A stretch of 64,000 bases of DNA, from IMG/VR virus record IMGVR_UViG_3300044729_002678, positions 97,619 to 161,618 of that record, one strand, 5' to 3'. Numbering within the stretch: the first letter of the stretch is position 1; each line of letters starts with the position of its first letter. Position numbers and translations under genes: made by a program. The notes under the pieces were generated by a model. It did not search any database, was not told the origin of the DNA, and saw nothing but the letters and a program-made list of their open reading frames with translations. Source of the DNA: a virus. This document shows, piece by piece, positions 42,981 through 59,930 of the stretch.

Positions 42981-45900
42981 AGGCTGACGATGAGTTCATA
43001 AATAAGGTAGTTAGTAGCAATTATTTTTTGCTACTGTTACACCAACAATGACCAGCGTGTGTTAAAGCAATTCCATCTCTAACATTACAGCTAATATATG
43101 TATGTCCTTTATATTCAAATTCGTTTAATTCTGTCACCCGTGTAAATATTCCGCTTTCAGTTCTTACTTCACCACCTTTTGATGTAGGTTTAGCTGTAAT
43201 GTTTTCGTCTTCGCAACCGCAAAAAACAACAGCTACTAACAGCAAATAAGCAAAAGCAAAGGTGCGGTGGTAAATTGATGTTCTCGTTTTCATATTATGT
43301 TCTGTTTTTAAGTTAAAGTTTTCGTTTCTAAATCTTTGCCTTAGCTTATCTGCGAACCGTTAGCGGAAATACCTTTTGTGCATCTCAACGCATCCACAGT
43401 TAATACAAGCGTGTAATTCCTGTTCAATCTCATCTTCACTCACAGAACTTGTAAGATTAGGAGAATTACACTCATTACATACCCATTCAAAATCTCGTTT
43501 AGGTACGCCTGTGCGATATATGTCTTTTGGGTCGTGTTGATGGTCAGGTAGTTTCATAGGTTTGGGTATTTTATGTCAGGTTATAGGCTGACGCTGGGGG
43601 GCTTTTGGTAAGAGCAGAGGCTGACGATTTGTTCACGAATGAGCGAGTTATCGGCAATTATGTGGCTTTCGGGTGTTCCCATTTTTCACGTCCGCATTTA
43701 CATTTTGTGGCTGATGAAGTTTTATTGTCCGCTTCAAAAAAGTCACATAACAGTCCGCTTCGCCCACTAACATCGGCTTGTAGCAATTCTTGGTTCAGTT
43801 CTTCGAGTAACTCTTGGAAATTAGTTTCTCCTGTTAATTGAAAGTTTATGCCACATTCAAATGCTCGTTTCATTTCATTGTATGAGTAATACATTTTCAT
43901 CTTCGTATCAAATTTAGTTGTTAATAATTCGCTTAAACGTAGGTTCGTGTTTCCGAATCCCAAATCTCAGTCCATTTGAAATACTTCCAGCTATCCCTCC
44001 ATCTAAGTTTAAACTTTTCTATGATTTTTGCTTCAAAACTTCTTGCCTCTTCCAAGGTGTCAAAGTCCTCCTGAAAATCATTCATCCTATCGGGATAATA
44101 GCAATCACCTGCAAATACTAAGAATCGTTTCATTATTGAGTGTTATTTGTGTTTGTATCCAACAGGCGATTTTTTTCTGCATTTAACCAGTCTTTAGCCG
44201 ACATACCGCTATTGGCAAAATTTTTTGAATTAAGCATATCCAATGCTATTTCAATTGCGTGTAATTGATACTTTTTATCAGCAATCAATCCATCTAAATA
44301 CTCATAAAAAGCCATTTGAGCCTCATACTCTGCTTCTGCTTGTGCAGCGCATCCTGCTTCGTATTCCCATTGTTCTTGTGTCATTTTATTTAGGTTTTAA
44401 GGTTTGGTTGGGTTCACGAATGAGCGAGTTAGGGGCAACCTACGGACGTACATCGTTCAACTTTTCGTAACACATTTTAATCACTCTTGCATCCCATAAT
44501 GCATTATGTTTTGGCATTTCATGATACACTTCACCACAGCCAAATTTTTCACGACTTACATCAGGGTCAATGGCTTTCATTTTAAACACCGTACAAATGT
44601 CAAAAGGTATGTAGTAAACGTTTTTTGGTATATTAAAAGCGTGTCCCCATATTTGAGAGAATAGCACCCAATCGTAAGAAAGACAATCACTCCACATTTC
44701 AACTTCTTCAAATTGCGAAAGCCATTTTTCTAAATAGATTTTTATTTCTTTCGTAGTTCCATAAACTAACATATCATTTGGTCTATCTTCTGTTACAATA
44801 CAATCGCTTACATCACCTTTAGGGTGGTTAAGTTTAGCAATCACGTTTTCTTTTAACCAATCATCCACTTGGGTAATTGCATAGTCTGTAAATTCAGCGT
44901 AAAATGTTTTGCCACATTCCGAAATAGCACCTAATGAAATTAGCGTTGTGCCTTGATGAAGCCCTGTGAACTCCGTGTCAAAGAAAATTTTTGTTTTTGA
45001 CATTTTATTTAGGTTTTAAGGTTTGGTTGGTCAGTTTATAGGCTGACGATTTGTTCACGAATGAGCGAGTTATAGTTAATTTAAAAGACTATCAATATCA
45101 GCCGTTGGTAGTGGCTTCAAATCGTAACTTTCATTTCTAATTCCGCTTGCTTCCAATCTATATAAGTTTCCGTCTTTGTCTTTCAATACTTTACCATCGT
45201 GTTCCCATTGGCAACCTTGAAAAACTATCGCTAACAACAAGACGGTAAAAGCAAGGGTTAATCGGTTAATTGAAAATTTCTGTTTCATGTGTATAGTTTT
45301 TAATTGTTTTCTTTATATGTTTTTTAAATGTGTATAGGTTTTGGGTAATTTGTGACAGGTTATAGGCTGACGATTTGTTGTAGGAAAACTTCACAAATAA
45401 GCGAGTTATGTGCCATTATGCTTTATTTCTTTTCCACAGTTGGTGCAATACCAATCAGTTAGGTTTTCCATCGGGAATGGTCTGCGTTTATCACAAACGC
45501 ACAACGTACCCTTCGGCAACATAACACCGTATAAAATCAATAGCTGCTTTCGCATTTCTATCAAGTCTATTTTTCCTAAGTGAAAGTTGTTCAATATTTC
45601 ATCTATTTTCTTATCCATACGCTACTGCTTTTATACGTGGAACGTTATAGGCTGACGCCGGGGGAGGTTTGGTAAGACCAGAGGCTGACGGTGGGTTCAC
45701 GAATGAGCGAGTTAGTGGTAATTATTATCAACCTCCCATTTATAAACCGCATTTTGATAATCATTATATTCAGATGAACTGCACCCTCTTGGGTCACTTG
45801 TATCATAAAAATCTTCTAATTGCGGTTTAGACTTCCCTTTATAACTACCGCTAACAAGCGGTTGGCTCAATTTCTCAAGTTCAGTTACATAATCAATTAA

Positions 45901-46091
45901 TTTGTAAAATTCATCAAGTGCCAACCCTTTTTGGTAGAAGTCAAGCTTGACGCCTCTCATCTGTGCTTTTAGGTTTTCAATTTTTGGTTTCATGGGTTTG
46001 GGGTTTGGTTGGTCAGCTTATAGGCTGACGCTGGGGGAGGTTTGGTAAGAGCGGAGGCTGACGATTTGTTCACGAATGAGCGAGTTAGGCG
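42981..46091. mobile_element. attC-like gene-cassette array I
   Basis: GTTA cores at 43010, 43359, 43647, 44428, 45069, 45405, 45644, 45711, 46084; full hairpins at 43235-43365 and 45520-45650. Confidence 0.7.
44440..45003 (-). CDS. DEDDh 3'-5' exoribonuclease (Rv2179c-like)
   Basis: FFDTEFTG...YDWV...HNALWDA. Confidence 0.85.
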
Positions 46092-57800: not shown

Positions 57801-59930
57801 GTTTAGTCCCAGCCACATATTCAGCCATTTCGGGTTCATTATTAAGAAACCAATTTATTCGGTTTATTTTTTGTTCTTGTGTTAATTCTATATTCATTTT
57901 TATTAAATTTATTTTGTTAAAAAAATAATACATACACATAACAAAGTGTATAAGTAATGTGGCTAATAAAGTTTATCTGTAAGTTATGTGTAATGTTACT
58001 CACCATTATACTTAAATTCAAACAACTTTGGTTTTAATGTATTACCAATTGGTTGAACGATTGATAAATCACTTGATGTTTCTCCGTGAATAACTTTCAT
58101 TAAACCAGGTATTCCATAATTCTCAAATGTTATTTCATACAAATCGCCAAAAAATGATGTATCATTATTACTAATTGTATGTGTTACTTCTATAACATAC
58201 TTTTTTGTAGTTATCAATGATTGTTGTAAATTAATAAACCAAAGTTGTGTTCCACTTGGTATCACATACTTATCTCCAATTTTTACTTTTTTCATATTTC
58301 ATTTCTTTAATTTTAACTTTTTAAAATTTGTGAGTTCATTACTCCATCAATATCCAAGAAAATAACTTTTTGCACAGGTTTTGGATTTAACTAATGGTTC
58401 TTTCAAAAACAATGAGATAACCTCCTCTTAGATGACTGCCACCACCTGTTGATATATGTCGTGCTGTTACAGATACAATCAACCAACCATCTTCCAAGAT
58501 TTTATCTATTTTGTCTTGAACATCTTTGTAAGATTCATCATCAGGAGTCACCAATACTTTTTGTTCTTTAAGTGCTATCATATTATTTTTAATTTAATCG
58601 TTCAAAGATATGACCTACAAACTCACCCCTCTGATACTGGTAGAGTATAAGTGGGTGTAAACTTCACAAATAAGCGAGTTAGCAGCAATGCTATGACTGC
58701 AAGCCAACACCATATCGTTTAAACCCATATTTCGTAAGTGTATAGTATTCTCCGTGTTCATTCACCCATTGATTAGGTCTTACTTCAATTAATCCTATTA
58801 GCCTTGCAAGTGCATCATATAAAGCACTGCTGCTAACATCGTATTGCTGAACATTGCCAGCTTCATCGGTAATTTCAACTTTTACTTTCATATCAATATT
58901 TATTTTTATTAAACATTTGTCTTTCAATTTAACTTAATACTACACAAATACAACATACTGGTAGCGTATAAGTGGGTGCAAACTTCACAAATAAGCGAGT
59001 TAGCAGCCATAATCAGAACAGACCGTTTCAAAGTCGTTCATAACAGCATCTAACAATTCCCATTTATCAGGATTACAACTTGTTGAACCTACCAGCAAAA
59101 ATTGAATTGCTATATCGTGTTCAGTTGTATGTTGACCTTTTTCGGCAAATCTTAATCTTTCTGATTTAAGTGCCTCAATCAATTTTTGTTTTCTTTCTTC
59201 GTTCATATTTTTAGTATTAAATTTTACAAAATTACGGCTGCTAACACACGTTTGGCGAAAGTGGCGGTTCAGTGCTCCGCAGACACATTTGTGGTTAATC
59301 AAACATTGGTTCTCCGCATCGGCTTTTGTGGTGAAAATCGCCACCTTCGCCGAGCGTGGGAACATTATGTGCAAGGCTACAATTCGTACTTTGAATAAAA
59401 GGCAACCTCACCATCATTTACCCATTGGTCAATTAAGTCGCTAACATCATTAATGTATTGTTCATTTTTACCTGCTAATTTAGTTGCTTTTAGATTTTCC
59501 CAAAATTCACCACTAAATTCATCCATATTATTCATGTAGTGAACAACAATTTCAAGTTTCTCTTTTAAGTTTTCCATTTCGTATTTAAATTAAATTTTGT
59601 GGTTAATGAAAAGTCAGTGCATTTAAGCCTCCACTGACAGCAAGCGGCAAAACGTTAGTGATAATAAAAATTAAATCAATCCTTGTTTCTTTAACATATT
59701 TACGATTGCCTTTGCTGCTGCCTTAACTGAATCAGGGTCTGTTTCCATATCACCCTCTTTCATAGAATAAGGCACATATCGTAAATATACTTCACTATCA
59801 ATTATATCTTTAATCATATCAATAAGTTCTTGCTCATTTTTACTATCACTAACATCAGATATATTCAAGTTTTCTTGATGTTCATTGAGACTTTGTATGT
59901 GTTTTAAATCTTTCATCTTCGTAAATTAGT
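54880..59930. mobile_element. attC-like gene-cassette array II
   Basis: Full hairpins at 55205-55337, 55919-55971, 56501-56592, 56791-56910, 57014-57331, 59240-59370; additional cores at 54898, 55613, 57735, 57983, 58678, 58999, 59654. Confidence 0.75.

Follow-up and report, generated by a model that had tools for sequence, protein, structure and literature searches.

The final 64 kb of the 161,618-bp IMG/VR record IMGVR_UViG_3300044729_002678 (this whole stretch being referred to here as the window, with all coordinates given as window positions) derives from a phage which, judging by its gene content, is a virulent-type, T4-like myovirus. Within the window, small genes of an early region are arranged as exchangeable cassettes, the boundaries of which carry a well-defined and previously undescribed structure. 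This consists of short GTTAG and CTAAC cores combined with two kinds of inverted repeat, these being a hairpin between a TAAC and a GTTA core (H2) and a longer helix closing around the body of a gene (H1). The closing helices are a new finding, and no description of this boundary structure was found in literature searches. The arrangement is tentatively read, with a probability of about 45%, as a set of mobile ORFan cassettes like the promoter-early stem-loop (PeSL) cassettes of T4-type phages, situated in a hyperplastic early region, with helices that fold in the early mRNA and with the phage's own RecA and gp32 shuffling the cassettes.

A first-pass annotation of the window had proposed phage-borne, integron-like cassette arrays between 42981 and 59930. 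The observation behind it is real and proved to be stronger than was described, although it overlooked that the genes lie on the minus strand (the coding strand for 201 of 209 open reading frames, ORFs) and that inverted repeats (H1) enclose them. Two minus-strand clusters were recognised: an array of about 15 small-ORF cassettes at 54899-59930, and a second cluster at 42981-46600 with GC-rich intergenic modules containing a conserved sequence named box C. This is a small-ORF early region, with almost no Pfam or PHROG matches among its ORFs.

Cores and H2 hairpins

Between 42981 and 59930, 22 minus-strand ORFs have a TAAC core at their stop codon or up to about 25 nt past it. In six of these (43360, 45406, 45712, 54899, 55614, and 59000) the TAA of the core is itself the stop codon, as had been reported. 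The sequence CTAAC[GT] clusters at -1 to +15 from stops, while TGTTAG clusters at +45 to +75 from starts.

The whole 161.6-kb record was scanned for the pattern TAAC-(5-6 nt)-stem of at least 9-loop-stem-(1-2 nt)-GTTA. Six such H2 hairpins were found, all between 43237 and 56907, all on the coding strand and all with identical asymmetry, against a chance expectation of 0.165 on average and a maximum of 2 in 200 Markov simulations. Among 240 possible 4-mer cores TAAC ranks first, every other core giving three hairpins or fewer. The hairpins measure 48-128 nt, with a further degenerate one of 131 nt, and their loops of 36-92 nt are not followed by a U-tract. In four of the six the loop holds the start codon of the next gene together with its first 13-30 codons, the 3′ arm and GTTA then being coding sequence. 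Internal loops are asymmetric, with 5-6 nt facing 1-2 nt. No single-base bulges occur in these hairpins, which were obtained by ungapped scans, but mismatches in the stems are present, with G.T or T.G found 14 times and C.A three times, all three of the latter coming from doubtful members.

All of the hairpins lie on the minus strand. That at 56793-56907 is composed of TAAC-GATAC and an 18-nt arm, a loop with the ATG and leader of ORF 56599-56862, and an 18-nt arm leading into T-GTTAG. The ATG of ORF 45406-45618 is in the loop of the hairpin at 45522-45647, that of ORF 43021-43293 in the loop at 43237-43362, and that of the last gene of the array (MKEQ...) in the loop at 55207-55334. The remaining two, at 56503-56589 and at 55921-55968 (a perfect 11-bp stem), correspond to palindromes which the first-pass annotation had placed at 56501-56592 and 55919-55971. 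Its third quoted example, at 59240-59370 with a degenerate ATTA core, was also located, and on inspection of the sequence this is a degenerate H2 in which ATAAT replaces the TAAC core, with 20-nt arms, three mismatches and the end T-GTTAGCAGCC.

Splicing or ribosome hopping across the hairpins was considered and rejected. The segment between cores is 120 nt in one case and 107, 118, and 118 nt in three others, so that division by three is not consistently possible, and no pairs of matching codons for take-off and landing are present.

The long ORF 54899-55474 overlaps the cassette gene 55344-55526 in a different frame. Its 5′ end is probably over-extended by read-through, the likely start being the ATG (MKEQ...) in the loop of the hairpin at 55207-55334. 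Downstream of this ATG there are two GTTAG junctions (55211 and 55064), and the ORF also holds an internal, start-less copy of the leader EEDKNLEQNLD.SNEKLHISDVS.

H1 helices around gene bodies

H1 arises from complementarity between two stretches, one coming after a GTTAG within an ORF and the other preceding the CTAAC which follows this ORF. Helices of this kind, of 15-24 bp, enclose eight gene bodies in the window. A strict scan returned six against 0.05 expected, with none on the plus strand, while a duplex-based scan returned eight in the region against 0.35 expected. Among relatives, 22 of 50 distinct genes preceding box C have an H1 partner 100-260 nt upstream, compared with two of 40 in the downstream control.

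On the minus strand of the window, the helix scans place H1 around the body of ORF 59671-59916 (59654-59853, with GTTAG and its arm at 59853 and the opposing arm with CTAAC ending at 59654) and around the bodies of ORFs 58691-58891 (58678-58837), 55614-55877 (55613-55808) and 55344-55526 (55331-55484). The entire ORF 59000-59209 is enclosed by the helix at 58999-59245, the GTTAG arm being in the 5′ untranslated region (UTR) and the stop TAA in the core. The 19-bp helix around the body of ORF 56599-56862 (56586-56796) is found both by the helix scans and in the predicted fold, and a 21-bp helix around the C-terminal part of ORF 56924-57283 (56904-57019) by the duplex scan and the fold. The duplex scan also gave a 22-bp helix at 43010-43240, with T/T at position 10 and G.T at position 11, around the lipoprotein-like ORF 43021-43293, where the 5′ arm codes for part of the signal peptide.

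In 21 distinct ungapped H1 helices from the window and its relatives, positions 1-4 do not vary and position 5 is either G-C or T-A. Covariation at positions 6-9 and from 13 on runs through each of the four Watson-Crick pair types. Position 10 holds either a pair or a T/T mismatch, and G.T stands at position 11 in every one of the 21 helices, with A.C pairs nowhere. The duplex formed by the sense strand is the superior one in 15 of 15 cases, by a mean of 4.8 kcal/mol. When 57030-56495 is folded as a single strand, four consecutive closed domains (H1-H2-H1-H2) are predicted, with z = -7.96. The GTTAG arm is positioned at +35 to +69 from the ATG across 18 unrelated leaders.

Within the body of ORF 56599-56862 there is also a 22-nt inverted repeat (56669-56690 and 56762-56783), formed by two copies of the self-complementary GAAGAATTCTTC, which code for EEFF and KEFF. 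In the predicted fold this repeat lengthens helix H1.

Cassette exchange among relatives

The proposal that these units behave as cassettes is borne out by cassette-precise replacement at the core among relatives (L-numbers denote loci on related viral contigs). In L005 and L006, a single 53-aa cassette replaces 59654-54903 of the window (4.75 kb, 14 ORFs), the homology ending exactly after CACTAAC and restarting at ACTAAC, with no other repeat at the borders. ORF 43360-43557 is 97.6% identical in L074, where box C follows it in place of the hairpin arm, the break lying directly after CTAAC. A 48-aa leader (MKP.IENLKAQ...QPLVS) is fused in frame, directly after GTTAGC, to one body in the window and to an unrelated one in L010, L062, and L070, both versions of the gene finishing in CTAAC and box C. 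In the protein database, the body of ORF 56599-56862 is found with at least five different leaders or with none, and its leader with four other bodies. L092 and L093 differ by a 260-nt cassette indel between 22-23-nt direct repeats of CTAAC plus box C.

Among locus pairs (not deduplicated), the body is common without either flank in 28, and the flanks are common with a different body in 30. Body and leader travel together in 58 of 77, with the commonest break immediately past the post-stop core, and no inverted body was seen in 239 body-sharing comparisons. Homology breaks lie within 12 nt of a core in 6.6% of 1,573 unique breaks, against 2.4% at random (a 2.7-fold enrichment). The cores are enriched junctions, with other junction sites also present: the major class is at the GTTAG core and a second class at the other core, with further junctions inside box C.

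Single cassettes of 43000-46600 have 85-97% identity to contigs of about 50% GC (L010, L024, L056, L062, L074, and others) on which smaller phages' terminase and portal genes are found. This holds, for example, for ORF 43360-43557, 43933-44133 (MKRFLVFAGD..., phrog_1411) and 46311-46505 (a small lipoprotein). Identity of this order to smaller-phage contigs indicates what is apparently recent cassette transfer between unrelated phage lineages.

Box C and the gene content of the record

Box C (CTAAC-TCGYTYATTYGTGAA) is 20 nt in length and occurs after cores in 10-11 copies, including the one at 58984-59002 on the minus strand. Their starts, as read on the coding strand, are 59002, 58681, 57738, 55616, 46087, 45714, 45408, 45072, 44431, 43650, and, in degenerate form, 43013. 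The exact pattern is present in 88 IMG/VR contigs, about 80 of which are clearly related, and the GC content of box C contigs ranges from 29 to 54%. A search of 185,579 bacterial and archaeal species genomes gave a single chance match (Bacillus), and this absence from bacterial genomes argues that there is no bacterial reservoir of the cassettes. Box C was not found either in Microcystis phage Mel-JY01, the closest isolate by RecA (56.6% identity). At box C, one upstream gene is joined to various downstream genes and vice versa. The commonest protein clusters of box C contigs are C5 methyltransferase, terminase, portal, and small lipoprotein, with no recombinase among them. The most widespread of these, with 59 loci, is a DNA cytosine-5 methyltransferase-like ORF (GSVCSGIEAAS motif; e.g., L008 17895-20237). 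Box C was also considered as a promoter, but the sigma70, sigma54, and MotA-type readings each match subsets of copies only, because the upstream arm varies, and neither in box C nor in H1 and H2 is a promoter or terminator consensus recognisable.

A domain search showed the record to encode RecA (E 1e-55), gp32, a gp44-like clamp loader and a DnaB-like helicase, in addition to FEN, a PD-(D/E)XK nuclease, ribonucleotide reductase, Mom, a T4 baseplate protein and a tail sheath. Rfam gave 33 tRNA matches in the record and matched no other family. The first-pass annotation had supposed an IntI-like tyrosine recombinase elsewhere in the genome or borrowed from the host, but Phage_integrase (PF00589) has no match in this record, nor in five long relatives and another 43 related records, while the same search matched 14 of 14 control genomes. 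The sole match was in an unrelated provirus that had matched box C by chance. Nor does the record match the Resolvase (serine recombinase) domain, the Y1 HUH transposase (PF01797, Y1_Tnp, the only HUH family searched) or the RVT_1 reverse transcriptase, and there is no domain match in it to a T7-like RNA polymerase, a sigma factor, a phage RNase III or a double-stranded RNA-binding domain (dsRBD). Retrons and diversity-generating retroelements are ruled out as no RVT_1 was found in the record, and IS200/IS605 or REP/RAYT elements as no PF01797 was found there.

Comparison with known systems

The attC sites of integrons are characterised by the boxes R'' (RYYYAAC) and R' (GTTRRRY), a palindrome of about 57-141 nt, an unpaired central spacer with sides of similar length and extrahelical bases in the L box. 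The cassettes of the window resemble integrons in several ways. Imperfect palindromes of 48-131 nt stand between inverse cores with AAC and GTT, the main cassette junction is at a GTT core, and the start of the cassette is complementary to its own inverse core, this being the case for eight window cassettes and for the 22 of 50 box C genes of relatives mentioned above. The arrays are of unrelated small ORFs, and one strand folds better than the other. Read on the plus strand, a cassette has the order G|TTAG-body (with the ORF reversed)-CTAAC-hairpin-G|TTAG, in which the G.T-bearing minus strand takes the place of the attC "bottom" strand while also being the mRNA sense strand.

The defining features, however, are lacking. 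The RYYYAAC/GTTRRRY architecture that had been claimed does not hold, as the cores (typically CACTAAC, CGCTAAC, and ACATAAC with GTTAGTG, GTTAGCG, and GTTATGT) conserve only GTTAG/CTAAC, or five of seven positions. The R-box pairing is 15-24 bp, compared with 7 in attC, and the geometry of extrahelical bases is replaced by an asymmetric spacer of 5-6 by 1-2 nt with no bulged bases. The ORFs run opposite to the polarity usual for cassettes, their starts being within the hairpin, boundaries occur at the other core and inside box C and not at G|TT alone, and there are neither bacterial counterparts nor an IntI in the record and the 48 related records. The arrays are therefore not classed as an integron or as a cluster of attC sites lacking an integrase (CALIN); of the original reading, the analogy is supported in part and the membership is not.

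Shufflons and intragenic invertible segments (Rci/sfx of R64, Gin/Cin) share with these cassettes an in-frame fusion of one constant N-terminal part with alternative C-terminal ones, a short conserved core for recombination within an ORF, and inverted repeats flanking the variable segment. Here, in contrast, every body has its own start region and all are in the same orientation; with 0 of 239 inversions and neither Resolvase nor Phage_integrase found, a shufflon or inverton is ruled out.

By analogy, these cassettes come nearest, among known systems, to the PeSL plus ORFan cassettes of T4-type phages (Arbiol et al., 2010, PMC2839356; Comeau et al., 2014, PMC4122927). The PeSL motif combines a sigma70-like early promoter with a terminator stem-loop; its direct repeats flank indels, excised mini-circles are formed during infection, and in T4-type coliphages general recombination acts on these short conserved sequences, the authors themselves having likened the cassettes to integrons (PMC2839356, PMC4122927). 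In the present phage, too, a hyperplastic early region of a T4-like myovirus is crowded with small ORFans, each flanked by short conserved intergenic motifs, direct repeats of a motif flank an indel (L092 and L093), and the genome offers no integrase, only general recombination genes of the phage. The main motifs differ from PeSLs in that box C and the GTTAG/CTAAC cores lack a promoter or terminator consensus, each cassette has inverted repeats of its own, long-range and with an invariant G.U, one junction within the ORF gives rise to in-frame leader/body chimeras, and the motif family spans phage lineages of 29-54% GC. What is new relative to PeSLs is thus the cassette-specific closing helices with their obligatory G.U and the in-frame leader/body junction.

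Proposed explanation

On the coding strand, each cassette is a self-contained unit made up, in this order, of a spacer, arm a, the 5′ UTR together with ATG and short leader, arm a', T-GTTAG, arm b, the body, arm b' and CTAAC. We infer that the molecule which folds is RNA. The two cassette-specific arm pairs would fold on the sense strand, most likely in a polycistronic early mRNA, giving closed domains with H2 round the start region and H1 round the body. The invariant G.U at position 11 of H1 is probably a point of recognition by a protein, and the helices may act in the processing, stability or insulation of the message of each cassette. Gain, loss and swapping of cassettes would be brought about by the general recombination of the phage (its RecA/UvsX-like protein and gp32), using as substrate short conserved sequences such as the cores, the 20-nt box C, shared leaders and promoter repeats. 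Selection would retain only those recombinants in which the helix partners stay together, and it is this selection that would leave the visible junctions at the bases of the helices. Folding in mRNA appears the most economical view because all wobble pairs are on the sense strand, because the G.U is never "repaired" to a Watson-Crick pair despite its covarying neighbours, and because the 5′ arm keeps its distance from the ATG in unrelated leaders.

Several points weigh against this PeSL-like explanation. The replacement between L006 and the window repeats only 6-7 nt, which is too short for ordinary homologous recombination, and the invariant mismatch and conserved 5-nt core look more like a recognition site than mere microhomology. 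Unlike true PeSLs, box C and the helices carry no recognisable promoter or terminator. The wobble bias fits folded single-stranded DNA as well as it does RNA, the attC "bottom" strand and the sense strand being one and the same. The completeness of the record is rated at about 84%, and we know of no function for a helix closing an ORF body.

The strongest alternative, though clearly less probable than the PeSL-like explanation, is a dedicated site- and structure-specific recombination. It would follow the logic of integrons with an enzyme other than IntI, encoded by phage or host, and crossover at GTTAG would move whole cassettes, the site being a folded single strand in which H2 is stacked on H1 to give an R box with a G.T mismatch, an asymmetric spacer and an L stem. 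It draws its weight from the cassette-precise replacement, at the borders of which only a 6-7-nt core is repeated, and from the likeness of core and G.T to a recognition site. It would also accommodate the 15-24-bp complementarity of a cassette start to its own inverse core, which is an integron hallmark in extended form, the invariant G.T at a fixed distance from the core, the 2.7-fold enrichment of homology breaks at cores, and the fact that phages with GC contents from 29 to 54% have these cassettes and box C in common. The wobble bias towards one strand is likewise as in attC sites, the bottom strands of which are more recombinogenic (Qi et al., 2023, PMC9892861). On the other side, the record has no tyrosine or serine recombinase, Y1 HUH transposase or reverse transcriptase, the 48 related records have no tyrosine recombinase, and none is among the commonest protein clusters of box C contigs. 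Junctions also occur at both cores and within box C, and only 6.6% of all homology breaks are near a core. A strand-specific DNA stage must moreover be assumed, as a T4-like phage exposes both strands in recombination-dependent replication. The most far-reaching reading, judged about as probable as this alternative, is that virulent phages of several lineages share a cassette system with an unknown recombinase or none, which would be an analogue of integrons evolved in phages without IntI. In such a system every ORFan would have a folded single-strand site, in which the GTTAG/CTAAC core is combined with an asymmetric spacer and with a cassette-specific helix of 15-24 bp and obligatory G.T, and this site would direct precise excision, insertion and in-frame leader-body fusion. 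A true integron-type array, with the palindromes as attC sites and IntI supplied by the missing part of the genome or by the host, is very unlikely. Its palindromes of 48-131 nt between TAAC and GTTA and its cassette-level indels at the GTTAG core would suit, and CALINs have been described in virulent phages, IntI1 having recombined five of six sites tested from them (PMC9892861). Yet the misfit of the 7-nt cores, the asymmetric internal loop without extrahelical bases, the antisense ORFs beginning inside the hairpin, the lack of Phage_integrase in records searched with a method that matched every control genome, and the near-total absence of box C from bacterial and archaeal genomes all speak against it.

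The helices could also be purely RNA elements of early transcripts, concerned with processing, stability or control of translation and having no role in recombination, selection simply removing recombinants that split a helix. In phage T7, RNase III processing hairpins are found between early genes of a polycistronic early RNA. Like these, the hairpins described here are intergenic, their upper and lower stems are parted by an asymmetric internal loop, as in the T7 R sites, and structure is kept while sequence varies. The sense-strand G.U bias with its invariant G.U, the very strong predicted folding, the avoidance of the initiation region by the 5′ arm of H1, and the fact that most mosaic junctions of the clade are located elsewhere than at cores are all compatible with such a role. 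The T7 hairpins differ, however, in that those of the window have large loops, often with the start of the next gene, a conserved GUUAG/CUAAC base and the G.U at position 11, and H1 closes coding sequence. Because the ATG is in the loop of four of six H2 hairpins and H1 closes a coding sequence, cleavage of the helices would destroy the message. Furthermore, the conserved core borders both junction classes, neither a phage RNase III nor a dsRBD was found in the record, and no Rfam family matches the helices. We consider an exclusively RNA-based role doubtful, and less probable than a dedicated recombinase. Least credible, to the point of being nearly negligible, is that these are ordinary terminator hairpins with chance copies of a short AT-rich motif. 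The genome is AT-rich and does have true terminator-like hairpins, such as that at 59606-59640 and the GTGTCCA...TGGACAC-T9 family, but the simulations and the 240-core controls contradict chance, loops of 36-92 nt without a U-tract do not resemble terminators, and covariation, the invariant G.T and conservation in about 80 other viral contigs would be left without explanation. Because the strand that folds is at the same time that of the mRNA, a reading based on RNA accounts for the structures with no need of a recombinase.

Other elements of the window

A 96-nt promoter-like repeat (TTGGAA-N17-TATCTT) at 53906-54001 on the minus strand is one of 13 copies, the others starting at 28069, 30322, 42778, 46504, 47097, 49200, 49929, 50350, 51650, 54182, 60099, and 63589. 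These repeats were considered as Bacteroidetes-type -33/-7 promoters, a reading that was set aside as the sigma70 pattern TTGGAA-N17-TATnTT matches equally well. Three copies of a PeSL-like composite are present (30587-30680, 50386-50479, and 54218-54311), consisting in order of a terminator hairpin GTGTCCA..TGGACA(C/G), a T or A run, a conserved box and the TTGGAA-N17-TATnTT repeat. A similar hairpin is found upstream of a promoter repeat at about 42870-42930.

The window also has at least 13 tRNA-like elements with a common acceptor/D-arm (AGTCAGGTGGCGGAATTGGT.AGACGC) and a common T-arm/acceptor end (ACAGGTTCGAATCCTGTCCTGACT), located at 35906-36065, 36184-36334, 36874-37032, 37129-37254, 40496-40601, 40921-41057, 41120-41270, 51234-51378, 51547-51666, 61628-61764, 61961-62092, 62146-62245, and 63107-63223. 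They carry unrelated inserts of 40-60 nt, and most occupy the space right between a stop codon and the ATG after it, perhaps as punctuation signals for RNase P/Z in polycistronic RNA.

Between the two cassette clusters, 51749-52936 codes for a 395-aa ORF with internal nucleotide repeats (52355-52473 resembles 52604-52722), which is kept in eight viral contigs at 53-67% identity. A coding repeat of 200-300 nt, with 76-94% identity, is common to several ORFs (24557-25520, 47949-48272, 49342-49537, and 63674-63997); two of the ORFs sharing it, 47951-48388 and 49288-49656, terminate in KDGELIEETKH and KEGKLIEETEN, respectively. From its sequence, this repeat looks like a paralogous domain family scattered over the window.

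Significance

Small early genes of unknown function supply much of the novelty of phages, many of them being probably concerned with host takeover or anti-defence, and little is understood of the way in which they pass from one phage to another. In the present case a defined nucleic-acid structure, covarying and with an invariant wobble pair, marks the units of exchange, and it is present in about 80 metagenomic contigs of phages that differ greatly in base composition. The sequence signature makes cassette boundaries findable in uncultured phages and the structure gives a concrete object in which a role in RNA processing or in recombination could be sought, while the cassettes themselves represent a natural system for the in-frame fusion of alternative protein bodies with short leaders. 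Should an enzyme act on the core, this would be a new system of cassette capture; if none does, PeSL-type shuffling would reach well past the T4-like phages of enterobacteria and vibrios.

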